Source: Deltaproteobacteria bacterium
GTDB taxonomy: Bacteria > Myxococcota > Kuafuiibacteriia > Kuafuiibacteriales > Kuafuiibacteriaceae
DNA: 11,295 nt
Assembly: GCA_040218735.1 (NCBI GenBank)
Contig: JAVJQW010000014.1
Span: forward strand, 1-11,295
Direction: 5' to 3'
The position numbers and the translations under genes are program-made. Positions 1 through 11,295 of the stretch are shown here, piece after piece. A model generated the notes under the pieces. That model was not told where the DNA came from and ran no database searches. It saw only the letters and a list, made by a program, of their open reading frames with translations. Every line of letters starts with the position of its first letter. The stretch's first letter is position 1.

Positions 1-1
1 C

Positions 2-91
2 GAAGAGCGGACCGAGGACGGCGCGCAGATCGTCGCGCGTTTGGATGTGGCGCGTGACGGGCTCGGCCACATGGAAGCGCACCGTGCGTAG
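2..91 (+). CDS. Possible 3' end of a CDS entering from the left edge (EERTEDGAQIVARLDVARDGLGHMEAHRA*)
   Basis: Frame open from position 2 to TAG at 89-91, with mostly G/C-ending codons. Too short to assign a family. Confidence 0.4.
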   Translation, partial: EERTEDGAQIVARLDVARDGLGHMEAHRA

Positions 92-133
92 GCTGTACGT
101 GTGTCGCTTGGCGTCGGTTGGCTTCCGGGGCGC

Positions 134-427
134 GGGTGAAGGGTTCATCGTCGGCTTCCTTTCGAGCTCGGCCTCGCGGCCGGTGCTTTGGGTCGGGGTT
201 CGCCAAATGGGCGCGACCGTCCGAACTCCTCGAGGCGGTGCGGCGCTTTCTGCGAGGCGAAGCCAAGCCAAGCGAAGCGAGGGGACCGAAAGCAGAGCCG
301 CACCGACCCCAAATGGGGCGGCAGCTCGAGGCGTGAGGCCTCGAAGAGGAGGCGCGCCGGCGTACCTTCGAGCCGAAGCACAACCGTGGTCGACGACAAC
401 GGCAACGAGGAACAGGAACCTTCCCCC
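134..427 (+). other. Extensively self-complementary non-coding element (candidate structured ncRNA, ssDNA structure or REP/MITE-like element)
   Basis: Nested pairings read by eye: 134-146/416-427, 148-154/390-396, 155-166/340-352, 171-178/332-339, 228-234/325-331, 236-244/297-305 (perfect 9 bp), 245-250/288-293 (perfect 6 bp). Side hairpins at 191-218, 307-318 and 366-378. Confidence 0.55.
252..281 (+). repeat. Six tandem pentamers GC[GC]A[AG]
   Basis: gcgag-gcgaa-gccaa-gccaa-gcgaa-gcgag, read directly from the sequence. Confidence 0.8.
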
Positions 428-452
428 CCTGTAGCGTCGAGCGGTGGTGCCG

Positions 453-1355
453 CTACTCCCAATTGCCCGGGGGAATGAGGTCCGACATTGGAGTGCGACC
501 GTGTCGAGGCGGTGCGTCGTCAGCGTATAGCGTCCACTCGATAGCCAAGTCGTCGAGAGGCGTTGGGGACGATGAGACGACGAGATTGCAGACTACGAGT
601 CCCGTGTTGTTTCGGTCGTGCGCTGCGCGCCGCTCCTGGGGAAACAGCTTGACGCCACGCCCCGTGACCTCCTTGCCGCGCACGGGGCCACCGGTGAAGC
701 CAAACGACGCGGGCAAGGACGCAACAAAGGCCCAATCGCCAGCGAACGTTTGACCGCGATTCACAGCAACGAAATCCACCACGAAGACGCAGCTCCGCGG
801 GTTCCCTCGCGGATCACAACGAACCTCGACCCCGCTTGTAGAGATTTCGAGATCGACGTGGGGGACGCCGCGGCGGCTGACGAGTTCGCGGACCTCCCAG
901 TCGCTAAGCGCATAGGTGGTGCGCCCGGCGCGACGATAGTACCGACCATCGCTCGCCTGACAACCACGGAGCTGCCGTTCGACCTCGACGACAAGGGCAT
1001 AGCGACCGCTCGACAGGTCGACACGGTGGACGTTGATGACCGGCGTGGGCTGGACAACCGCGGCAATCTTGTTCGCGAGATCCTCAGCCGTAAGGTCTCC
1101 CTTCCGCGCCGTATCAAAGGCGTATTCGTCGTCGATGGAGACCGCGTGGCCGCCCTTGCCCTCGCGGATGCCGTAGACGATGACGCCGCCAGCGCTGTTG
1201 GCGAGCGCAGAGACGTCCTTGCTCAACTCGGTGCGAATCTTATCGCGCGTCTTGTTGTGAAGTCGGAGTGCGTCGCATGTCTTGAAGTCGAGGTTGTCTG
1301 CTTCGACCTCCTGGTCATCGACGAATCGTTGAAGTCGAGCCTCGTCCCACGTCAT
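453..1355 (-). CDS. Schlafen/AlbA_2-domain protein with C-terminal beta-rich (Ig-like) domain; putative defence ribonuclease
   Basis: N-terminal EADNLDFK, KDVSALANSAGGVIVYGIRE and GRYYRRAG match AlbA_2/Schlafen motifs (ExxxxE/DxK; SAFANxxGGxxxxG). The last ~135 aa show alternating hydrophobic beta-strand patterns. Confidence 0.88.
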   Translation of the reverse strand: MTWDEARLQRFVDDQEVEADNLDFKTCDALRLHNKTRDKIRTELSKDVSALANSAGGVIVYGIREGKGGHAVSIDDEYAFDTARKGDLTAEDLANKIAAVVQPTPVINVHRVDLSSGRYALVVEVERQLRGCQASDGRYYRRAGRTTYALSDWEVRELVSRRGVPHVDLEISTSGVEVRCDPRGNPRSCVFVVDFVAVNRGQTFAGDWAFVASLPASFGFTGGPVRGKEVTGRGVKLFPQERRAAHDRNNTGLVVCNLVVSSSPTPLDDLAIEWTLYADDAPPRHGRTPMSDLIPPGNWE

Positions 1356-1443
1356 GTCGGCGGGTCTATAGCGAAGATCGGACGCTCAAAGGAGGGGCCT
1401 CGCCGTCATGCGCGCTCGCGCCCGTGGTAGCGTCCGCCGCGCG

Positions 1444-2313
1444 ATGCCGTCTGTGATGCACGAGGCGTTGATCGATCTGTTCCGGCAGCGAACGCGCCTC
1501 GCGCCGGAGCTACTCGAAGAAGCGTTGGGCGTCGCCCTCCCCGCCTACGACGACGTCCGAACCGAGGACGCCACGCTCACGCAGATCGTTCCGACCGAGT
1601 ATCACGCGGACCTCGTCGTCCTGCTGATGGACGGCACCCCGGTGCACGGCATCGTCGTCGAGGTGCAGCTGCGCCGGGACGGCAACAAGAAGTACTCGTG
1701 GCCGCTCTATCTGACGGCGCTGCGCGCGAAGATTCGCTGCGAGGTGTCGGTCCTCGTCGTGACGCCCCACGAGCGTGTCGCCGCGTGGGCGGCCGAGCCG
1801 ATAGCGCTGGGCCCGCAGGGGACGTTCACGCCATGGGTGCTCGGCCCGGGCGTCGTGCCGCGCATCGAGGACCCGGTGCGTGCCGAACGCGCCCCCGAGC
1901 TCGCGGTCCTCTCGGCGATCGCCCACGGTCAGGCCCCAGGAAGCATCGACGTCGTCACCACGGCGCTCACGGCCGTTTCCACGCTCGACGATGCCCGAGC
2001 CGCGCTGTACGCTGATTTGGTGATGGCCTCGCTCGGCGAGGCCGTTGCGAAGGAGCTTCAAGCGATGGTCGCTACCGGCAAGTACGAGTATCAGTCCGAG
2101 TTCGCGAAGAAGTACTTCGCCGAGGGCGCCGCCGAGGGCGAAGCCCAGGGACGCGCCGCGATGCTCCTGCGCGTGCTCGAGCGTCGTGGTCTCGCGGTCT
2201 CGGACGAGCAGCGGACCGCCATCGAGTCTTGCCACGACGCGGTCCGCCTCGAGCTGTGGCTCGACCGGGCGCTCGAAGCAACCTCCACCGACGACGTGCT
2301 CTCCGACGTCTGA
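1444..2313 (+). CDS. Rpn/YhgA-like PD-(D/E)XK nuclease-domain protein with C-terminal helical tail
   Basis: MPSVMHEALIDLF start, ADLVVLL...IVVEVQL catalytic-type motif, ELAVLSAIAHG, then YQSEFAKKYFAEGAAEGEAQGR...LLRVLERRG...LELWLDRALEA, a tail typical of Rpn/DUF4351-like proteins. Alternative start is ATG 1408, which has AAGGAGG at 1389-1395. Confidence 0.8.
   Translation: MPSVMHEALIDLFRQRTRLAPELLEEALGVALPAYDDVRTEDATLTQIVPTEYHADLVVLLMDGTPVHGIVVEVQLRRDGNKKYSWPLYLTALRAKIRCEVSVLVVTPHERVAAWAAEPIALGPQGTFTPWVLGPGVVPRIEDPVRAERAPELAVLSAIAHGQAPGSIDVVTTALTAVSTLDDARAALYADLVMASLGEAVAKELQAMVATGKYEYQSEFAKKYFAEGAAEGEAQGRAAMLLRVLERRGLAVSDEQRTAIESCHDAVRLELWLDRALEATSTDDVLSDV
2065..2313 (+). CDS. Putative nested in-frame small protein (RpnS-like, 82 aa)
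   Basis: AAGGAG at 2050-2055 lies 9 nt before an in-frame ATG at 2065, at the junction between the nuclease body and the C-terminal tail. Confidence 0.5.
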   Translation: MVATGKYEYQSEFAKKYFAEGAAEGEAQGRAAMLLRVLERRGLAVSDEQRTAIESCHDAVRLELWLDRALEATSTDDVLSDV

Positions 2314-2322
2314 GGCGAGCGC

Positions 2323-2949
2323 GTGGGCGCCGACGACAACATCGAACGCTTCGACCCCGACACGCAGCTGCAGGTCGAGTTCCGGCTCCAGCGGTACTTC
2401 GACTCCCACCGGATCATCGAGTTCGTGGGCCACGTTTGCGTAGCCGACGACGAGGATGGTGGCGAAGAAGACCTCGTCGAGATCGGGCGGCTCCGCGGCG
2501 TGTTCATTCCGGAGGTCTGGAGTCCCGCGGAGCTCCTCGACCTGGCGGACTCGGTGCGCGAGGACGTCTATCAGCTCGCGAACATCGAGTGGCGCAATGA
2601 TGACGCCGGCGACGGCCTACGGCTTCCACCGATCACGGACAGCCACGCATCGAGCTGGGTCGGCGTCGAGTCGCTCGAACTCGACCCGAAGTGGCGTGGC
2701 CAGCAAATCGGCTACCACGTGCTTCGCGAGCTCACGCGCTGGTGCGCCAGCCACCCGCACACCCTCCTGGTCGCGAGGCCCCACCCGCTCGTACACGATA
2801 CGCCGTCGCCGACGGAGGCGTCCGCCGGACGGCTCCGCCGCTACTGGTCCGCGTTCGGGCTGCGACCGATCGGCGATAGCGGCGTCTTCGGCCACGGGTT
2901 CGAGTTGAATTGGCCCGAAGGCTCGTGGATGCGGACCCACGGAGAATGA
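2323..2949 (+). CDS. GNAT-fold (acetyltransferase-like) protein
   Basis: VESLELDPKWRGQQIGYHVL resembles GNAT motif A (acetyl-CoA binding) and LRRYWSAFGL resembles the C-terminal FY..GF motif. GAGG lies 7 nt before the GTG; the gene starts 9 nt after the upstream stop. Confidence 0.7.
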   Translation: MGADDNIERFDPDTQLQVEFRLQRYFDSHRIIEFVGHVCVADDEDGGEEDLVEIGRLRGVFIPEVWSPAELLDLADSVREDVYQLANIEWRNDDAGDGLRLPPITDSHASSWVGVESLELDPKWRGQQIGYHVLRELTRWCASHPHTLLVARPHPLVHDTPSPTEASAGRLRRYWSAFGLRPIGDSGVFGHGFELNWPEGSWMRTHGE

Positions 2950-3323
2950 GGCCGCGTGACGAGACGTGGCCTACGATCGCGATCCTCTGCATCGCCCTTC
3001 TCGTCGTGCTGATGTCGGTGGTGATCGACGGACCGGCGGACAAGGTGTGCCTGAGAATTGCGGAGTGTGGCGCCCTCGACGCCGGCGGCTTTCGCTGGGA
3101 CACGCGCACAAAACCGCGCGGAGGCGAGCCGAGCGTTGCGTCGTGTGTCCAGCGCCTGGAGGAGCCCAACATCGAGGACTTCGTGCTCGACGAATGCGAC
3201 GCGGATCTTCGAGCCTGCCTGGCGAAGAAGAAGTGCGCGGACTTCTTGGCGTGTGCGTACCAGCCAGGGCTCGCCAAGGACGGGTGCGGGGTGCATCGCC
3301 CATGGTGGAAGCTCAGATTCTGA
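2946..3323 (+). CDS. Small Cys-rich membrane-anchored or secreted protein
   Basis: ATG overlaps the GNAT stop (ATGA, 2946-2949). N-terminal hydrophobic segment IAILCIALLVVLMSVVI is followed by 8 Cys. C-terminus is RPWWKLRF. Confidence 0.7.
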   Translation: MRPRDETWPTIAILCIALLVVLMSVVIDGPADKVCLRIAECGALDAGGFRWDTRTKPRGGEPSVASCVQRLEEPNIEDFVLDECDADLRACLAKKKCADFLACAYQPGLAKDGCGVHRPWWKLRF

Positions 3324-3327
3324 GTCG

Positions 3328-3630
3328 GTGACCTACACCTTCGGACAGGAGGAAAGACTGAACGCCCGTGTAGACAAAGAGGAGGCGCACCAGGCAGGGT
3401 CTTCGGTCGTGAAGAAGACGCTCGACAACAACAGTGTCAACAAGGGCCACGGAGGCTCCGTGACGTCGCGCCGCGACGGACAAGGCGGATCGATCACGAG
3501 CGGAACCGGCGGCGCTGCGATGTTTGGCGAAGAGATGATCGTTGTTCAAACGATTCCGGTGACGCGACCGAGCGCCAGCGCTACCTCGAGTTCATCGACC
3601 CAGGCGTCTGGCCGCACCGGAAAGAAATAG
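3328..3630 (+). CDS. Possible 100-aa Gly/Ser/Thr-rich hypothetical protein or gene fragment
   Basis: GTG lies 4 nt after the previous stop, the first two-thirds has G/C-ending codon bias, and there is an internal repeat GGSVTS/GGSITS. No clear SD; overlaps the convergent gene by 39 nt. Confidence 0.3.
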   Translation: MTYTFGQEERLNARVDKEEAHQAGSSVVKKTLDNNSVNKGHGGSVTSRRDGQGGSITSGTGGAAMFGEEMIVVQTIPVTRPSASATSSSSTQASGRTGKK

Positions 3631-4785
3631 GCGGCGGCGAGAATCGAGGCGCGCCACCGCAGCCTCGCAAGCGAGAGGAAGATGATGCGGCGGCAGGGCC
3701 GCCAACGATCCCGCGATCTCGTTTACGAGCGCAGAAGCGAAGACTTCGTCGTCGGCTGGAGCGTCTTCATCAGCCAACCGCCAGGCTGCTGCGAGATCTC
3801 TCTGCCCGCGGAATGCGTTGAACCGCCACGAGACCGAACGTGAAGTCACCAGCTCAGCATCGGACGCTTCGATCGATGCGGCACGAGGCAACACGAGATG
3901 AACGGTGGTCGGCTGTTCGGCCAGCGCGCAGTGGTACGGGTCGCTAAACACGAAGTGCGAACCGGTACGGCGTACAAGACCAGGTCGCGCGACGACGAAA
4001 CCTATTGTGCGACTCTCACCGGGGGGAATCGTTCCATCGGGGCGAAGAACCAGCTCGTAGCGACTACTGTTGGGGACACGTGTGTGGATGGCCGCTTCTG
4101 AAGAGCCGTGGGGGCCGTCCAGGCCATCGAAGACACTTCGTACAACAGACGGGCCGTCGGTGAAGGACCAACGAAGTTCCAGATCGATGGCGCGAGCGCG
4201 AAGAGGCGAAGTGCCATCGTTGGCGATGGAGAGCCGGAGATACTGAAGGACGTCCTGCGAGTTCGGTTCGACAGAAAGCACGGTGTGACTTTCACACCGA
4301 TGCTGGTCTCGCGGTGAAGACGAGGGCGAGGGCCTCCAGTGAGTCCCGTAATGCTTGTCGATGATCTCCGGATTCTTGGCCCACTCGGATTTGAGGTCCT
4401 CCCAGAAGAGGACGACGATCCGAAAGGGAGCCGGGTTGGACTTGAAGTGCTCCCGGACCCTCTGCTGGAAGCCGGCATCGCGATCAGCCGCAACGACGAA
4501 GTAGTACTCCTCGATCCTGGGAGTGAACGCCTTGGCGCGCTCGACCTCCTTGATAAGCTTGGAGAGCGAGAGCTTGTCCGTGTTCTTGCACTGCGCCCCG
4601 ACGTAGCCGCCGTTCAAGCGAGGGGGCTGACCAATGAGGTCGACGCCGTGTTGATGCTGGCCCCGTCGTCCATTTCTTTGTGCCGCTGGGTCGGACCAGT
4701 AGACACGCATCGCCTCAAGCGCCATGTCCTCAAACTCGTTCTCATCCGTAGGTTTCGGGAGCTTGGATGTATGCGGCGATGGCAT
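3592..4785 (-). CDS. Mrr-like restriction-endonuclease domain fused to an uncharacterised Ig-like/helical C-terminal region
   Basis: N-terminal FEDMALEAM...NGRRGQHQHGVDLIG...GAQCK...FWEDL is the Mrr-type D...QxK nuclease module often seen as a defence effector. No Walker A seen in the rest of the protein. Confidence 0.82.
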   Translation of the reverse strand: MPSPHTSKLPKPTDENEFEDMALEAMRVYWSDPAAQRNGRRGQHQHGVDLIGQPPRLNGGYVGAQCKNTDKLSLSKLIKEVERAKAFTPRIEEYYFVVAADRDAGFQQRVREHFKSNPAPFRIVVLFWEDLKSEWAKNPEIIDKHYGTHWRPSPSSSPRDQHRCESHTVLSVEPNSQDVLQYLRLSIANDGTSPLRARAIDLELRWSFTDGPSVVRSVFDGLDGPHGSSEAAIHTRVPNSSRYELVLRPDGTIPPGESRTIGFVVARPGLVRRTGSHFVFSDPYHCALAEQPTTVHLVLPRAASIEASDAELVTSRSVSWRFNAFRGQRDLAAAWRLADEDAPADDEVFASALVNEIAGSLAALPPHHLPLACEAAVARLDSRRRLFLSGAARRLGR

Positions 4786-4836
4786 TTGCTCAGCAAGCAG
4801 CAGCGCAACTGCAATAAGACAAGGGATTGCGCCGGC

Positions 4837-5286
4837 TCAAGCCGGCACACGGTGAATGACACGCGGATCGATCTTGGTTTCGCGCTCTGCTCCCGGGAAC
4901 ATGTCGAGCTGACGGCACCAGTCGCTGTCTCCGTGTTCGCGGTGATGGTCGTCGACGCACAACCAGACGACATGGAGGTGCGCGTCGGGAGCAACGTAGT
5001 CGGGGTGATGCGCCTGCACTTCGTGTGAACCGCAATCGCGACACGGCTGCGGCACGAGTTCGCCGCGGAGGATCGCCCGACTGGTTCGTTGGCGAACGAT
5101 CTTCTTGAGCTTCTCCTCCGCAGAGAGCGTCCGCCCCTTGCGGCGATCCTTCGTGTCTTTTGCGGTGCAGCCCTTACACGCCGCGCGAACGCCGGCCTTC
5201 ACGTGGTGTCGACGACGATGGAAGTCGGTGAGCGGCAGATCCTTGCCGCACTTCGAGCAACACTTCGTAGGGACCGCTACGGACAT
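4837..5286 (-). CDS. Zn-finger plus HNH-like protein (149 aa, phage/MGE type)
   Basis: CSKC...CKGC N-terminal Zn finger, then PCRDCG..VQAHHPDY...VVWLCVDDHHREH. Start placed at ATG 5286, because the longer 492-aa ORF is antisense to the lipoprotein gene. Confidence 0.78.
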   Translation of the reverse strand: MSVAVPTKCCSKCGKDLPLTDFHRRRHHVKAGVRAACKGCTAKDTKDRRKGRTLSAEEKLKKIVRQRTSRAILRGELVPQPCRDCGSHEVQAHHPDYVAPDAHLHVVWLCVDDHHREHGDSDWCRQLDMFPGAERETKIDPRVIHRVPA

Positions 5287-5406
5287 CGCCTTCGAACCGA
5301 GTGCCCCTAGCGTACAACGAAACGGACTAGGACGACGACGTGCATCGAGCCGCTTGGCGCGCCGAGGTTCCGGCGAGTAGCGTCCCCCACCGTGCGACGC
5401 CCCGCG

Positions 5407-6192
5407 ATGAATTCGATCTCGTGCGCCCTCTCGCTCGCGATACTCGCTGCAGGCTGTAGTGGCAACGGCGGCGATGACGACGACTCGACCTTCGTACCGC
5501 TTGACGCGCGCCCGGCGTATGACGCTGGACCTCGGTCGAGAGACGGAGGCGCTGGAGACGCCGGAGAGGTCGTCGACGGCGGCTTCCGAGACGGAGGTCT
5601 CACCGCGGACGGCGGAGCCAGAGATAGCGGAGTTCAGGACGCGGGGCAGGACCAAGATGGAGGAGTACCGAGAGACGCTGGCCCCCCTCGTGATGCGGGC
5701 CCCGCACGGGACGCGGGTCCACCGCGCGACGCCGGACCCGCGCGTGATGGCGGCGCGCTGCCGGGCGTGGCCAACGAGACGGACGCCCAGGAGGAGTGCG
5801 ACTTCTGCAACCTGCAGTTCCCGGCCTCGATCACGATGAACGCCGGCGAGACCACGCCAGACATCTACGGGCGGATCTACGAGGCGGGCGTGACAGAGGC
5901 CTCGGGACCGGGACCGGGGATCATCGCCGAGGTCGGCTACGGCCCGGCGGGGACCGATCCGAGGACCTCGACCGCGTGGGCGTGGCAGACCGCGGGCTTC
6001 AACATGATCCCCGGCAACGACGACGAGTACATGGGCGCGTTCGCGATCTCGAGCGCCGGCAGCTACCTGTACACGTTCCGGTTCTCGCTCGACGGCGGTG
6101 CGTCGTTCTCGTACGGTGATCTCGACGGGGCAGGGTCCAACGCGGGGCTGGTGTTCTCGGTGACGCAGCTCGGAACGCTGTCCGTGAACTAA
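5407..6192 (+). CDS. Lipoprotein with DAG-rich linker and C-terminal beta-sandwich domain
   Basis: Lipobox LAAG-C and a DAG/DGG low-complexity linker. The domain NLQFP..IYGRIYEAGVT..AEVGYGP..WAWQTA..GNDDEY..YTFRFSLDGG resembles modules I recall from amylopullulanases and myxobacterial surface proteins. Alternative start is GTG 5392. Confidence 0.82.
   Translation: MNSISCALSLAILAAGCSGNGGDDDDSTFVPLDARPAYDAGPRSRDGGAGDAGEVVDGGFRDGGLTADGGARDSGVQDAGQDQDGGVPRDAGPPRDAGPARDAGPPRDAGPARDGGALPGVANETDAQEECDFCNLQFPASITMNAGETTPDIYGRIYEAGVTEASGPGPGIIAEVGYGPAGTDPRTSTAWAWQTAGFNMIPGNDDEYMGAFAISSAGSYLYTFRFSLDGGASFSYGDLDGAGSNAGLVFSVTQLGTLSVN
5671..5742 (+). repeat. Four 18-bp coding tandem repeats, RDAGP[P/A]
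   Basis: RDAGPP-RDAGPA-RDAGPP-RDAGPA, with diverged synonymous codons. Confidence 0.85.
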
Positions 6193-6213
6193 ACGAAGAG
6201 GAGACGCGACGTA

Positions 6214-7338
6214 GTGGGCATTCTCGCGACGCTTTATCGGCTCGCTCGGAGCGGAAAGAGCCACGAGGAAGACGCGCTGACGGAGATCCTGCGTCACCTC
6301 CTCGAAGAAGACCATGAGGTCCTGCGCGAGTTCGTGAAGGCACTTCGATTTCCGCGCAGAACGGGCATACCGTCATCGCGTCGGGGCGGACCGACCGTCC
6401 AGACTCAGGTGAGTGAGCCCGACCCCTTCGGAGGCCACTGTCGCTACGACCTCTTGTTCACGTGGCCCACAGGCGTTCGCCTCATCGTCGAAGTGAAAGT
6501 CGGCGCCGGCCTAACGATGAAGGCGGTCTTGGATGCCGACGGTGAGGCGGAAGCCGTCGACCAACTGCACCGCTACCTCGCACTCGCTCGTGGCGAGCCC
6601 ATGACGTTCGTGGCCTCGCTCGGTATCAGAACGGTCGATCTTCCAGGTTCAGTGACCGACGACGAGCGGTTCATCGGCGCTTTGTCGTGGCAACAACTGC
6701 ATGACTTCGTCTGGCGGGTCCTCGATAGGGACCCGACGGACCCTTCGTCGACGCTGCGCCGGGAGTGGGTCGACCTGTTGGAGGAAACGAAATTGGCAAC
6801 GGCACCACTCACCTTCGAGGGCCTGACCTCGGTCTACAAGTATAACGTCTTCCACGAGGCCTTCGGCGAAGCGCTCAATGCAGCTGTCGATCGAATCGCG
6901 GAGGAAGGCCTCCTCGAGCCCTTCGAACGACCGACTGACAGCAAGTGGCAGGAGGCGTACGAACGAATTGGCTATCGGCTCTTCGTCGACAGAGATCGAA
7001 GCCGGATGGCCTTTGTCGGCCTGTGGCACGGGGACGGTACGGTGCACCACGAGATCCCGGACCTCTACTTCTTCTATGAGGTAGCGAAGGACTCTTCGGC
7101 TGCGAAGTTCATCGATGGACGAGCGGCCGAGATCGTCACGATGCTCGACGCCCTCGAAACGCCCTCAGGAGGCAAGTGGAGCTTCGAGCCTGGCGGCTAC
7201 CAGACCATTCAGTGCGCGACGAGCATGGTCGAGGTCGTTCGCCAACCAGACCCCGCTGAAGCGATTGCAGACTTCTTCGTCGGCTGCCTCCGTGCTTCGG
7301 GCCCACGACAGGTCTTCTTCCAAGCTCTCGAACAGTGA
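6214..7338 (+). CDS. PD-(D/E)XK nuclease superfamily protein (PDDEXK_4-like N-terminus, unknown C-terminus)
   Basis: EDALTEILRHLL, VQTQ, RYDLLF, LIVEVKV, DQLHRY and LSWQQL motifs. SD GAGGAG at 6198-6203 precedes the GTG. Confidence 0.82.
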   Translation: MGILATLYRLARSGKSHEEDALTEILRHLLEEDHEVLREFVKALRFPRRTGIPSSRRGGPTVQTQVSEPDPFGGHCRYDLLFTWPTGVRLIVEVKVGAGLTMKAVLDADGEAEAVDQLHRYLALARGEPMTFVASLGIRTVDLPGSVTDDERFIGALSWQQLHDFVWRVLDRDPTDPSSTLRREWVDLLEETKLATAPLTFEGLTSVYKYNVFHEAFGEALNAAVDRIAEEGLLEPFERPTDSKWQEAYERIGYRLFVDRDRSRMAFVGLWHGDGTVHHEIPDLYFFYEVAKDSSAAKFIDGRAAEIVTMLDALETPSGGKWSFEPGGYQTIQCATSMVEVVRQPDPAEAIADFFVGCLRASGPRQVFFQALEQ

Positions 7339-7434
7339 GCACTCGGTCACAGCCCGTTCATGGCCGCGCTGGGGGCCGAACTGCGGACACGACCGCCTTC
7401 AACCATTCGACAAGCTGCCGACTCAACGTCCGCC

Positions 7435-9117
7435 TCAGAACGACAGGGCGGGACCGGCGCTCGCAACCGAGAGCCCAGCACCATCACCGACGTTCGTCGT
7501 GTTCCCATAACCCAGGCGCCCAGAGCCTCCGTTGCCCCAGCAGTACACCTCGTCCGCCGCCGTGACCGCGCACGTGTGGCGCCCCGGTAGCGTCGACAGT
7601 GCCACGTGCGTCGCCGCGGCGCCAAGGGCGACGACTCCGGCCATCGCGACGTCCAGCCCGACGCCATCCCCCACGTTGTCCGTGTTGCCGTAGCCCAGGC
7701 GACCGTCGCCTCCGTCGCCCCAGCACCGAAGACCGCCGGTGGCAAGGATGGCGCAGGTGTGGCTGTGTCCGGTCGCGATCCGCGAGACCGACTCGCCGAC
7801 TGGGACGTCTCCAGCAACAGGGATACTCGGGCCGATGCCATCGTTCACGTTGGTCGTGTTGTTGTAGCCGAGCTGCCCGGATGCGTTGCGTCCCCAACAG
7901 CGAACTCGCCCCCCCGACAGAAGCGCACAGTCGTGGGTGTCGCCGGAGACGAGGTCGACGGCGGGCTCACCGACGTTGATGCTGCGGAAGATCGTCTGGT
8001 CAGTGCCATCGATGCCGCCGTCCCAACACTCGATCGCACCGGTCGCGAGCAGCGCGCAGCGATGCGTGATGACCATCGCTGGGCCGGACAGTGCCAAGTC
8101 GCCAGCAGTGATGATCGATGGGCCCGTGCCGTTGCCTATCGCGGGGGTGGAGCCGTGACCGTGTTCGCCGGTGACACTCGTTCCCCAGCAGCGGACGGAT
8201 CCGGTTGTGAGGAGCGAGCAGGTCACATCGTTGTGCGTTTGGACCTGCGCGACGAGGCCACCGACTGGGACGTCACCCGCGAGGGTGATGCGACGACTCG
8301 GATCGTCGCCGACGTTCTCCGTGTCGTTGTAACCAAGCGCCCCGCGGAAGCCAGCTCCCCAGCACCTCAAGCGGCCATCGTTGTAGACCGCGCAGGTGTG
8401 GAAGCGACCGAGCGCAGCATCGACGACGACCTCGCCGAAGCCGGTGTCGACTTCACCGACGTCTTGGACGGAGGGCCCAACGCCGTCCCCAACGTCGGTC
8501 GTATTGTCGTAGCCAAGCTGCCCGGAACCGTTCTCGCCCCAGCAGCGGAGCCGTCCGAGCTCGTTCAGCGCACACGAATGAGAGTCGCCCACGAAGACGC
8601 GCGGTTTGACCTGGAAGAAGACGTCTACCGAAGCATCCGAGCCGAGCGTCGTCGCGCACACCTCAGCGCGGTTACAAGGCAGAGACCAACCGCCGACGCG
8701 AGACGTCCTGGTCGGATTCGCCTGCAGCTGGATCTCCACACCTTCGGGGAACTCGGCATCGCATGTCCCGGGGCAGTCGATGCCCGGCGGCAAAGAGACA
8801 ACGCGACCCGCGCCGCCTCCGGCGATGGTCAGTGAGAGCGTGTGCATGACGGCGGGGCCAGCGTCTCGCGCTCCCGCGTCGGACGCCTCGCCTCCATCGC
8901 GCAGCTCTCCAGCGTCGCGTTGTTGTTCGCCCGCGTCGCGAGTGCCCGCATCGGTCTGGCCGGCGTCCGACGCACGCGCGTCGCCGGCACCAGCATCACG
9001 AATCGAAGCATCACGCCCACCGCCGTCGGGCTCGCCGAGCGGGTAACGAAGTGGCTCGCACGCCATCGTGACGACGAGCGCGAAGAAGAGGCTCTGCCAA
9101 CGCATCGCGTGCCTCAT
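7435..9117 (-). CDS. RCC1/BLIP-II-repeat beta-propeller lipoprotein with DAG linker and one small beta-repeat (InlB-B/Flg_new-like) domain
   Basis: Lipobox VTMA-C, DAG repeats, domain GAGRVVSLPPGIDCPGTCDAEF...GWSLPC, and seven HxC...CWG.N..GQLG-type repeats (the fourth is degenerate). Alternative start is ATG 9105. Confidence 0.9.
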   Translation of the reverse strand: MRHAMRWQSLFFALVVTMACEPLRYPLGEPDGGGRDASIRDAGAGDARASDAGQTDAGTRDAGEQQRDAGELRDGGEASDAGARDAGPAVMHTLSLTIAGGGAGRVVSLPPGIDCPGTCDAEFPEGVEIQLQANPTRTSRVGGWSLPCNRAEVCATTLGSDASVDVFFQVKPRVFVGDSHSCALNELGRLRCWGENGSGQLGYDNTTDVGDGVGPSVQDVGEVDTGFGEVVVDAALGRFHTCAVYNDGRLRCWGAGFRGALGYNDTENVGDDPSRRITLAGDVPVGGLVAQVQTHNDVTCSLLTTGSVRCWGTSVTGEHGHGSTPAIGNGTGPSIITAGDLALSGPAMVITHRCALLATGAIECWDGGIDGTDQTIFRSINVGEPAVDLVSGDTHDCALLSGGRVRCWGRNASGQLGYNNTTNVNDGIGPSIPVAGDVPVGESVSRIATGHSHTCAILATGGLRCWGDGGDGRLGYGNTDNVGDGVGLDVAMAGVVALGAAATHVALSTLPGRHTCAVTAADEVYCWGNGGSGRLGYGNTTNVGDGAGLSVASAGPALSF

Positions 9118-11294
9118 GGTGCCTCCGGGAGGCGCATACGTTCACGCCCGGCGAAGTGGCGAGCGCGCCCTTCGAGCGCGCTCTCTTGTTCCATCGGTCG
9201 TTGAATGACGTTGGGGAGGCGGTCCACGTCGTCCGTGAACACCTCCAGCTCCCGCTTCGCCCGGGAGATGGCGACGTACCAGTTTTCGTAGCCGACGAGG
9301 TTCTTCTCGGCGGTGTCGATGTGCACGAGCGCGCGACCGCGCGTCTGCCCTTGCGCGCCGTGGGCGGTGACCGCCCAAGCGTGGTCCCAGTGACGTTGGG
9401 TTTCGAGGTTCAGCATCTGACGTTCGGGTGGGCCGTTCTTCGACGCGACGTCGACCGCCGCAACGCGGCCATCCTCCGAGAGTGCGACGACGGTCGCAAG
9501 CGCGCCGTTGCGTCGACAGAACGTCTTGTCGTTGCGCGTCCACCGGATGCGATCGCCGACGGCGAGGCGGCGCTCCTCGGCGCGGTACACCTCAACGTTC
9601 GCGTGACGGTGCGGTTGCCATGTGACACGTCGGCCGGTGGTGTCCTCGAGGACGACTTTGTTCTTCGGGAGGTCCGTCGAGACCACCCGCAGCGTGTCAC
9701 CCGATCGAACGGACAGGCGCTTGTAGTTCCGGCCGAAGCGCACGACGTCACCGACGTCGTAGTACGCGGACTCGCGGGTCTGCGCGTCCGTGAAGCCGCG
9801 CGAGACGAAGACCTCGGCACGCTGCTCGTCGCCGACGAGGACGCCGTCGCGGCGCAGGCCCTGGCGGATGCGCTCGTTGAGCTCGATGCGATCCTTGTTC
9901 GAAGGGGTGAGGACGATGGTGTCGTCGCGCGCCTCGGGTCGGTTCAGGAAGGCATCGGCGACGGCCTGCAGGCGGTCGGTGCGGGTGCCGATCGAGACGA
10001 CGCGGCCGGCGAGCTTGTCGAGGGCCTCGGCCTCGTTGCGTCGGATCGTGGCGTAGACGGCTTCGCGGAGGACGCCCTCCTCCTGGCGAAGCACCTCCTG
10101 CATGGTGGCGTGGGTCAGACCCCGCCGCTTCAGGAGCCGGAAGGCCTGGCCCGCGGCGATGGACGGTAGCTGCGCCTCGTCGCCGACGAGGACGACCCGC
10201 GCCCCGTGGCGCTCGGCGGCGCGGAGCAGGCGACGGGCATCGTCGTTACCCATCATCGACACCTCGTCGACGACCCAGACCTGCTTGCGGTCCGGGGTCG
10301 GGTCCTCGCGATTCACGTCGATGAGGAGCTGCGCAAGCGTGCGGCTCGCGATGCCGGCGTCCTCCTCGAGGAGGTGCGCCGCGTTCGCGGAGGGGGCCGC
10401 GCCGAGGACCTCGAAGCCCTGCCCCTCCGCGAGCTCGCGGAAGGTCTTCAAAGCGAAGGTCTTGCCGGTGCCCGCATAGCCCTGCACGCCGGTCACGCGA
10501 TCTTGCGTGGTGAGGGCGAGCTTCACCGCATCGCCCTGCCCTTCCGTCAGGCCGCGCGCGGCGGTCTGCGCTTCGACGATCTCGGGCGACACGATCGGCT
10601 CGACGGTCTGGCGCCCGCGCTCGACCAGGTCGACGAGGTCGCGCTCCGTGGCGAGCGCCTTCGGCGTGGTGAAGTAGCGATCGAGGTCGCCATCCTTCTT
10701 GATCGCCGGCGTGGCACCGAGGAGGCGGCCGTCCTGCTTCATCGCTTCGATCGCGGCAAAGACACTCGCCGAGTCCTCGAGGCGACCGACGCCCAGCTGC
10801 AGCGCGTGCTTCTTCAGGTCGCGTTCGGCGATGACGGTCGAGCGTTCGGTGAGGTGCTGCAGCGCATGCTCGACGGCGCGCTCCGCGTTCGCGAGCTCGT
10901 CGGCGCCGGCGTCCCGTTGGGTGACTTCGCGAATCGGTGGCGACGTCAGTTCGAGCGCGCGCGCCTCGCGCGCCCACAGCGCGTGCAGATCGTCGGGGTG
11001 CATCTTCCTCTTCGAGGCGCGTGTCATCAGGTTCGCGCGCTCGGCCGCACGCGCGCCGGCCTCACCACGTTGCTGCATCGCCTCTTCGATCTGCGCGCGG
11101 CGCTTCGAGAAGTGCTCGAGGTGCTCGGGCGTGTAGCCCGCGATCTCGAAGTGACCGAGGCTGTTCGTGCGCGTGACGTCGTAGCCGAGCGCGCGCAGGC
11201 GCGACGACAGCTCAACGCGATAGATCGCGTCCGCCGCCGCGCGGCCGTCGTACAGACCGCGGTTGTCGAGGGCACGCCACGCGCCGTCGGAGCG
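9114..11294 (-). CDS. MOBF (TrwC/TraI-like) conjugative relaxase-helicase, 5'-partial
   Basis: Frame stays open to the window edge: DGAWRALDN..YRVELSSRLRALGY..FEIAG..HFSKRRAQIEE is the end of a TrwC relaxase domain. SF1B helicase motifs follow: GYAGTGKT, VVDEVSM, VGDEAQL, TAHGAQGQT, YVAISRAK. Confidence 0.93.
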   Translation of the reverse strand, partial: RSDGAWRALDNRGLYDGRAAADAIYRVELSSRLRALGYDVTRTNSLGHFEIAGYTPEHLEHFSKRRAQIEEAMQQRGEAGARAAERANLMTRASKRKMHPDDLHALWAREARALELTSPPIREVTQRDAGADELANAERAVEHALQHLTERSTVIAERDLKKHALQLGVGRLEDSASVFAAIEAMKQDGRLLGATPAIKKDGDLDRYFTTPKALATERDLVDLVERGRQTVEPIVSPEIVEAQTAARGLTEGQGDAVKLALTTQDRVTGVQGYAGTGKTFALKTFRELAEGQGFEVLGAAPSANAAHLLEEDAGIASRTLAQLLIDVNREDPTPDRKQVWVVDEVSMMGNDDARRLLRAAERHGARVVLVGDEAQLPSIAAGQAFRLLKRRGLTHATMQEVLRQEEGVLREAVYATIRRNEAEALDKLAGRVVSIGTRTDRLQAVADAFLNRPEARDDTIVLTPSNKDRIELNERIRQGLRRDGVLVGDEQRAEVFVSRGFTDAQTRESAYYDVGDVVRFGRNYKRLSVRSGDTLRVVSTDLPKNKVVLEDTTGRRVTWQPHRHANVEVYRAEERRLAVGDRIRWTRNDKTFCRRNGALATVVALSEDGRVAAVDVASKNGPPERQMLNLETQRHWDHAWAVTAHGAQGQTRGRALVHIDTAEKNLVGYENWYVAISRAKRELEVFTDDVDRLPNVIQRPMEQESALEGRARHFAGRERMRLPEAP

Positions 11295-11295
11295 T

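Follow-up and report, generated by a model that had tools for sequence, protein, structure and literature searches.

Bacterial defence proteins that join a nuclease to a sensor domain have been described among both Schlafens and PD-(D/E)XK nucleases, and they are the closest described counterparts of the two genes considered here. These genes, A and B, lie on contig JAVJQW010000014.1 of a deltaproteobacterial genome of the phylum Myxococcota (assembly GCA_040218735.1), of which positions 1 to 11,295 were analysed at full length and are called the window below. Prokaryotic Schlafens were defined by the motif Ex4(E/D)xK and catalogued into 55 architectures by Perez Taboada et al. (Nat Microbiol 2026, PMC13056530). 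According to the parts of that paper used here, the architecture pSlfn5 consists of a Schlafen nuclease and an immunoglobulin (Ig)-like domain and accounts for 3.9% of 5,930 proteins (i.e. 232 members), with a defence score of 0.69. Its member RorSlfn5 restricts phage T5. RorSlfn5 detects the tail assembly chaperone through its Ig-like domain, which is similar to integrin ectodomains; the activated protein cuts tRNA anticodon arms, and the nuclease-dead E15A/D20A variant loses its activity. Specificity within pSlfn5 moves with swapped Ig domains (PMC13056530). As for the PD-(D/E)XK nucleases, Mrr-like restriction endonucleases are counted among plug-in effectors in the consulted sections of Kaur et al. 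(2020, PMC7159879), and most Avs2 proteins use Mrr-like double-stranded DNA nucleases, as stated in the part of Evans et al. (2026) that was available.

In our reading, which we consider probable, A and B encode two independent single-gene proteins, each made of a nuclease and a beta-sandwich, and both form part of the variable cargo of a conjugative or integrative element that exists in several copies. The architecture, catalytic motifs, predicted folds, homology and genomic setting of the two genes are presented in turn, gene by gene, followed by the element that carries them and by a comparison of their C-terminal domains.

Gene A and the pSlfn5 class

The Pfam family SLFN_AlbA_2 matched residues 18-150 of gene A (E 5.9e-14), and the AlphaFold 2 (AF2) model contained an alpha/beta domain (residues 1-160) followed by an all-beta domain (167-289). 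Since 31 relatives of about 300 amino acids (aa) aligned over 92-97% of the protein, this two-domain design is conserved. The catalytic motif E18-ADNL-D23-F-K25 fits Ex4(E/D)xK; in the family alignment E18, K25 and E65 were invariant and position 23 was occupied by E in the relatives. When the family profile was compared with PDB, SLFN13 (E 5.5e-7), SLFN5, SLFN12 and CbCash were found, and the structure matches of the nuclease domain were SLFN11, 12, 13 and 14 (Foldseek, VIA). The model of the C-terminal domain yielded Ig-like matches, integrin among them (Foldseek, VIA, Atlas), with CARDB/DUF11/integrin-like Ig domains as the nearest folds. N199 and G201 were invariant in all 32 sequences of the family, and an LFPxE-type motif was present in only 7 of them. 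The families DUF7942 and SCO4225, which appeared on residues 191-227 with E 0.066-0.095, were taken as noise.

A direct link to the published class was provided by WP_001057679.1, a pSlfn5 member encoded on a Bacillus thuringiensis plasmid (locus L003) and listed in the supplement of PMC13056530. The profile of A matched this protein with a hhalign probability of 98.8% (E 7.8e-17, 196 columns, A residues 8-215), the alignment reaching the RNxG motif and the initial strands of the Ig-like sandwich, and BLASTP gave E 1e-9 over the nuclease domain with about 26% identity there. Based on the SLFN_AlbA_2 match, the Ex4(E/D)xK motif, the predicted Ig-like C-terminal domain and this profile match, gene A is judged to be a divergent member of the published pSlfn5 class from a large high-GC genome. 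Compared with pSlfn5 and RorSlfn5 as described in the consulted parts of PMC13056530, it has the same domain order, a similar size (about 300 aa) and the motif at the same N-terminal position, E18-x4-D23-x-K25 corresponding to the RorSlfn5 motif with its E15/D20 sites. It also has an Ig-like C-terminal domain with integrin-type structural neighbours, a likeness in which the RorSlfn5 side is taken from the published description. It differs from the Bacillus member in its large high-GC host, in the low identity of the nuclease domains and in that most of the Ig domain could not be aligned. Moreover, CARDB and DUF11 domains are surface or secreted, whereas the C-terminal domain of A is fused to a nuclease, cytoplasmic and below every Pfam model.

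Several points weigh against so close an association. The profile alignment with WP_001057679.1 ended after the first Ig strands and left the later ones unaligned, no PADLOC model matched gene A, and pSlfn5 itself is, in the available description (PMC13056530), an architecture class based on structural homology and not a clade. Apart from these points, the accessions of two metagenome-assembled genome relatives of A were absent from 10 supplement files of that paper.

Gene B, its nuclease module and its beta-sandwich

The AF2 model of gene B (predicted local distance difference test 84.7) consisted of an alpha/beta domain (residues 1-150), an all-beta domain (162-337) and two helices. By alignment and model, residues 1-150 have a restriction-endonuclease fold with conserved D49 and Q65-x-K67. 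An exhaustive HMMER search with B retrieved 2871 representatives with E values of 0.001 or lower, 1422 of them with 1e-10 or lower. Among the 150 matches listed, nearly all covered only approximately residues 1-150 of B; the matching region was N-terminal in these proteins as well, which were 110-2168 aa long. Gene B matched phrog_8991, a family of unknown function, with E 2.5e-21 when it was compared with PHROG. A Pfam scan was applied to 120 of the 149 listed matches (the window's own protein excluded, 29 left out). Weak matches to Mrr_cat or Mrr_cat_2 were present in 16 of these (E 5e-6 to 1e-3) and STAND/P-loop domains in 11 (NACHT, NB-ARC, nSTAND3, nSTAND5, AAA_16, NPHP3_N; one of the 11 being a weak ABC_tran), further partners being TPR repeats (7 proteins), EAD7 (1) and FGE-sulfatase together with NifU (1); 95 of the 120 had no Pfam family whatever. 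Individual fusions included a SAVED protein of Cap4-like design, matched by the PADLOC SAVED_PDDEXK and CBASS effector models (L015:7989-9671, plus strand), a TPR protein with PIN-TPR-GreABC (L011:7794-11918, plus strand) and proteins of 1600-1650 aa with weak Avs4 matches (L013, E 2.6e-10; L017, E 4.7e-11). The Avs4-like form of about 1600 aa, encoded at L017:7971-12773 (plus strand), was met again, unchanged in size, at several loci of Alphaproteobacteria (L017-L022).

From its position atop STAND, SAVED, EAD7 and Avs4-like proteins it can be concluded that residues 1-150 of B are, as far as homology and modelling can tell, a Mrr-like PD-(D/E)XK nuclease of the plug-in effector kind, and by the search counts this N-terminal module appears to top thousands of proteins. 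In the public protein collection B is represented by P0064, a call of only 341 aa that begins at residue 57 and so lacks the conserved D49; relatives with the same beginning indicate that the 397-aa open reading frame (ORF) has the right start. As points against the assignment, gene B had no match in Pfam (E up to 0.1), NCBIfam, PADLOC or PDB sequences, and its profile compared with PDB sequences gave noise only.

The nearest folds of the B sandwich were Ribophorin I, ITIH1 and M1 aminopeptidase domain I. The sandwich of Ribophorin I and M1 aminopeptidase is secreted, surface-located or in the lumen of the endoplasmic reticulum, whereas that of B is fused to a nuclease, cytoplasmic and below every Pfam model. 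Full-length relatives were few, namely P0063 (88% identical), P0066, P0067, P0078 and the genomic locus L005. In the tail, L361, P365, P366 and H368 were invariant in 4/4 full-length relatives; in the sandwich, N189 was kept in 6/7 family members, G191 in 3/7 and P-G-E in 2/7. With residues 158-397 as the query, a word-based search recovered nothing beyond B itself and P0063, and Atlas feature scores for the domain stayed at noise level (at most 0.81). Two matches to the C-terminal domain alone, P0120 and P0155, were considered as stand-alone sensors and set aside because they resemble truncated gene calls, P0155 beginning within the last part of the nuclease domain.

When 401 genomes of the phylum were searched with the C-terminal domain, it was found in B's own genome and, as one weak match (E 7.9e-5), in genome G296. 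Profile comparison of the latter with the B sandwich (probability 97.5%, E 5e-12, 172 columns) shows that the match is real. In the G296 protein (506 aa, L033:9900-11420, plus strand) the B-type sandwich comes first and is followed by a helical middle part and by a C-terminal region containing GRID...ELK; its residues 220-468 matched the PADLOC LmuA model PDLC03853 (E 4.5e-14), and the Pfam family PDDEXK_9 gave E 0.027, which is below threshold and was used only alongside the LmuA match. Among 301 genomes of the order of G296 searched with the sandwich, four carriers, all of them large genomes, were detected including G296 (the others at L035, L036 and L037), all with the reversed design of an N-terminal sandwich and a C-terminal LmuA-like region in ORFs of 469-544 aa. 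The family profiles of B and of the G296-type proteins aligned solely over the sandwich (probability 98.7%, E 3.4e-16). Because the same sandwich thus follows an N-terminal Mrr-like nuclease in one family and precedes a C-terminal LmuA-like one in the other, these comparisons identify it as a portable and rare module, which sits on either side of a nuclease and has partners from two different families.

Gene B lacks an NTPase, SAVED and EAD, and its partner is a beta-sandwich of about 180 aa with a helical tail; it is therefore not a component of Avs, CBASS or Lamassu. No P-loop or STAND domain was found in B by Pfam, PADLOC or the model, NACHT, NB-ARC and nSTAND occurring only in distant relatives of the N-terminal module. 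The Mrr-like effector class is otherwise represented, in the available parts of PMC7159879 and PMC13601566, by Avs (Avs4, PDB 8dgf), Cap4-type nuclease-SAVED proteins and nucleoside triphosphate-dependent conflict restriction endonucleases. In plan, B resembles Upx (PMC13601566) and Shedu (named in PMC13056530), which, as far as these sources describe them, are single proteins with a PD-(D/E)XK nuclease and an unannotated sensor domain, without an NTPase. The likeness to Upx is one of plan; Upx is much larger and has a C-terminal nuclease with ExK at residue 1176 (according to the same part of PMC13601566), and the Shedu nuclease family (DUF4263) had no match to B in PADLOC. Lamassu combines LmuA with neighbouring SMC-like LmuB/LmuC, whereas the G296-type protein has a LmuA-like region with no LmuB/LmuC nearby, the 11 other ORFs in the 20-kb G296 locus being without a PADLOC match. 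That the G296 gene stands alone in a 2.3-kb low-GC islet (GC content at third codon positions, GC3, 0.56) between housekeeping genes speaks against a defence role. No described defence protein combining a Mrr-like nuclease with such a sandwich was found in the literature, subscription journals and bioRxiv supplements being outside the search.

In classical Mrr-family enzymes the catalytic domain is paired with a DNA-binding domain. The main rival explanation for B is an endonuclease of the restriction type (type IV or IIS-like), in which the C-terminal part would recognise DNA, or some modification of it, and would not act as the protein sensor of an abortive-infection nuclease. This is favoured by the best structural matches of the nuclease domain, which were the restriction enzymes MspJI, AspBHI, LlaBIII, FokI and PaqCI. 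However, the nearest folds of the sandwich are scaffolds that bind proteins or peptides and not known DNA readers, family scans of the main ORFs of the window turned up no methyltransferase or specificity gene, and the N-terminal module heads chiefly STAND, SAVED and EAD proteins, i.e. triggered effectors. We thus regard a restriction enzyme as an unlikely explanation of B.

Cargo slots of a relaxase-bearing element

The window is an entire contig (C22) of a source genome of 11.6 Mb in 70 contigs, with a GC content of approximately 0.60-0.72. Parts of it recurred on three further contigs of the same genome (C31, C47 and C65) at 87-95% identity (blastn), namely the relaxase, the RCC1 protein, the block 4837-6196, the ORF at 1408-2313 and positions 1-438; the relaxase copies on C47 and C65 were 93-95% identical. 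Between these shared parts, three segments of the window were copy-specific (Table 1). An imperfect direct repeat borders the cassette with gene A, with TGTAGCGTC on one side (430-438) and TGGTAGCGTC on the other (1425-1434); C31, which is without gene A, has one copy of this repeat. The segment with gene B lies between backbone blocks conserved in C31, C47 and C65, and in C65 the blocks matching window positions 146-362 and 4837-5271 were only about 120 bp apart. GC3 was 0.73 in A and 0.68 in B, compared with 0.86-0.88 in backbone genes. As A, B and the ORF at 6214-7338 are missing from sibling copies with 87-95% identical flanks, and GC3 is lower in A and B, the two genes are independent of each other and belong to the variable cargo of a conjugative-type element present in several copies.

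Table 1 Positions of the genes, domains, motifs and copy-specific segments of the window
Feature	Position	Strand	Description
Gene A	453..1355	minus	ORF, 300 aa; pSlfn5-class (predicted): Schlafen nuclease and Ig-like domain
Gene A residues 1-160	876..1355	minus	Schlafen/AlbA_2 nuclease domain, E18-x4-D23-x-K25
Gene A residues 163-300	456..869	minus	Ig-like beta-sandwich, about 9 strands, CARDB/DUF11/integrin-like; presumed sensor
Gene A motif VNRGQTFA	741-764 (NRG 753-761)	minus	residues 198-205
Gene A motif LFPQERR	627-647	minus	residues 237-243
Gene B	3592..4785	minus	ORF, 397 aa; Mrr-like nuclease, beta-sandwich, helical tail
Gene B residues 1-150	4336..4785	minus	PD-(D/E)XK Mrr-like nuclease module; D49, Q65-x-K67
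Gene B residues 158-342	3760..4314	minus	13-strand beta-sandwich, Ribophorin-I/M1-aminopeptidase domain-I-like; presumed sensor or regulatory module
Gene B motif NDG	4213-4221	minus	residues 189-191
Gene B motif IPPGES	4012-4029	minus	residues 253-258
Gene B residues 343-397	3595..3759	minus	two predicted helices (344-360, 374-388) around conserved PPxH (AF2)
Single-gene cassette with gene A	439..1424		absent from sibling C31 (blastn, junction sequences)
Copy-specific cargo segment	2394..4836		holds gene B and most of the GNAT-like ORF 2323-2949
Copy-specific segment	6197-7441		holds ORF 6214-7338; absent from C47, flanks there 9 bp apart
ORF between A and B	1408-2313	plus
GNAT-like ORF between A and B	2323-2949	plus	weak GNAT match
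ORF with lipoprotein-like start	5392-6192	plus	RDAGP-type repeats
Copy-specific cargo ORF	6214-7338	plus	374 aa
RCC1-repeat protein	7435-9117
TrwC relaxase with AAA_30 helicase	9114..11294	minus	Pfam TrwC E 8.6e-26, AAA_30 E 2e-49; gene runs off contig; marker of the conjugative backbone

Besides a TrwB coupling protein and a relaxase, C47 carries a prokaryotic viperin (PADLOC pVip, E 2.4e-85), and a viperin is also present in the same element region of C65 (PADLOC pVip, E 1.2e-84). The presence of this known antiviral gene in sibling elements favours a defence reading of A and B. Neighbourhoods of relatives were examined at 19 loci with ORFs chosen by a greedy picker, 7 of the 19 being scanned in full. 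One locus with a relative of the N-terminal module (L009) lay among GmrSD/HEC-05, type I HsdR and helix-turn-helix genes. Against a defence role, the neighbours of the full-length B relative at L005, the sole one whose context could be read, were of non-defence kinds (polysaccharide deacetylase, Kunitz/Kazal, sigma-54 regulator and HDAC), and other loci of the N-terminal module were without defence neighbours.

These observations bear on a second alternative, namely that A, B or both serve the element itself, through exclusion of or competition with siblings or plasmids or through addiction, or that they are decaying passengers. The two genes do stand beside a relaxase in an element with at least three or four diverged copies in one genome, the B relatives at L005 and in G296 lie outside recognisable defence islands, and 30.4% of the surveyed pSlfn genes are without a defence neighbour in the consulted parts of PMC13056530. 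Yet both ORFs are intact with their catalytic motifs in place, the sibling elements carry pVip, a known antiviral gene, and pSlfn5 has, as cited above from the same parts of that paper, its defence score of 0.69 and a member that restricts T5. A role confined to the element, or mere decay, therefore seems quite improbable.

As for the activities, triggers and defence phenotype of A and B, we infer the following under the preferred reading of two independent nuclease and beta-sandwich proteins. In gene A, by analogy with RorSlfn5, binding of a phage protein to the Ig-like domain at the C-terminus would switch on the Schlafen nuclease (E18, D23, K25); tRNA anticodon arms would then be cut, phage translation choked and phage yield lowered. 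Gene B would follow the same plan with a different output. Its Mrr-like DNase (D49, Q65-x-K67) would be held off at rest, the Ribophorin-I-like sandwich and the helical tail would bind a trigger or drive oligomerisation, and DNA would then be cut and infection aborted.

Other parts of the window were noted in passing. Positions 1-438 (minus strand) shared 90% identity with the 5' portion of a gene on C31 whose product has a RadC-like JAB domain (Pfam E 1.3e-31), and the left end of the window therefore probably codes for the N-terminal section of a RadC-like protein running off the contig. Within it, the stretch 213-358 (about 145 bp) recurred at 81-88% identity on C11, C12, C31 and C65. The backbone block 4837-6196 was conserved in C47 and partly in C65, its 3' end on the minus strand (approximately 4837-5300) encoding a Cys/His-rich peptide; in Pfam, neither this peptide nor the ORF at 5392-6192 had a match. 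Repeat DNA at approximately 5668-5766 matched many contigs of the same genome and of a genus relative. The ORF at 6214-7338 had no clear match in Pfam, NCBIfam, PADLOC or PDB and a weak PHROG match (E 0.018); judged by eye, its D...EVK stretch could be a candidate PD-(D/E)XK motif.

Relationship of the two C-terminal domains and its implications

The initial annotation of this locus had proposed that A and B carry members of one Ig-like sensor family interchanged between an RNase and a DNase effector. Its descriptive basis was borne out. The four motifs it had pointed to in A and B are at the places claimed, with matching residue and window positions, and in both proteins a nuclease domain of about 150-160 aa is directly followed by a C-terminal beta-sandwich, as seen from the predicted models and structure matches (AF2 boundaries 1-160/167-289 in A and 1-150/162-337 in B). 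The N-termini of A and B are polar, in agreement with its claim that signal peptides are absent, a judgement made by eye only.

We examined the composite motif as the pattern N.G.{17,77}[LI].P[GQ]E, which was defined after the fact, so that its significance is overstated. It occurred in 35 of 6461 long high-GC3 ORFs of the genome (0.5%), in 0.1% of 3439 high-GC3 ORFs of 250-450 aa, and in 19/20000 shuffles of the A and 9/20000 of the B C-terminal domain. The NxG...PxE pattern is thus rare and a fair marker of a sandwich domain.

Relatedness of the two sandwiches was a different matter. BLASTP of A against B gave a best segment of 14 aa (E 0.1). In hhalign, the profiles of the C-terminal domains (32 rows for A, 7 for B) reached a probability of 0.46%, E 0.13 and a score of 15.2, compared with scores of 11.5-12.6 for three deliberately mismatched domain pairs used as controls. 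The domain of A has about 125 aa and about 9 strands, that of B about 180 aa and 13 strands plus helices. A single PDB entry (9fiw_M) was common to the 50 best listed for each model, and the nearest Atlas structure clusters of A and B had no family in common. Two observations count against their independence: the best hhalign segment pairs the two NxG strands, and AP2 mu2 was present in the VIA lists of both proteins. The former is what generic sandwich features would produce. The only predicted features common to both sandwiches are the NxG turn after the second strand and the [LI]xPxE lead-in to a later strand. The two domains appear to be of the same fold class and not detectably related, as judged from sequence comparison and, for the folds, from their lists of structural neighbours.

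The exchange of one sensor family between RNase and DNase effectors is consequently very unlikely, for sequence similarity is negligible and the hhalign score barely above mismatched controls, strand number, domain size and PDB and Atlas neighbours differ, G191 and P-G-E are poorly conserved in the B family, and a Schlafen protein with the B sandwich was not found, an A sandwich on a Mrr-like domain not having been searched for. Effector swapping as such was recovered in another form, with the B sandwich joined to a second PD-(D/E)XK-type nuclease and not to a Schlafen. Likewise, the proposed effector-sensor logic holds for A and B each alone and fails as that of a common family. As for the suggestion of an undescribed system, A falls into a published class and for B a description was not found; the domain swap recommended as an experiment is already contained, for the Schlafen gene, in the available parts of PMC13056530.

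Taken by their sequences and models, A represents a known class, and B together with its reversed-order G296-type relatives a new though modest variant. Gene A matters little in this respect, being one more, divergent member of a class for which both the mechanism and the logic of sensing appeared in print in 2025-26. Together with the G296-type proteins, gene B offers a concrete and testable case, that of a second, unrelated beta-sandwich combined with two different defence-type nucleases. We tentatively suggest, as a possibility well short of an even chance, that the B sandwich and the helix following it form an unrecognised cytoplasmic sensor of phage or invader proteins, portable between nucleases, and that they define a new small single-gene defence family in large-genome soil bacteria. 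Provided that the sandwich is indeed a sensor, co-expression screens of the kind used successfully for RorSlfn5, Avs and Upx could reveal its trigger. The element copies, with viperin, Schlafen and Mrr-like nuclease genes in their variable slots, would be a natural place to look for further defence cargo. Should the suggestion prove true, then together with pSlfn5 it would suggest that beta-sandwiches which arose independently several times provide a general way of sensing phage proteins in the cytoplasm.

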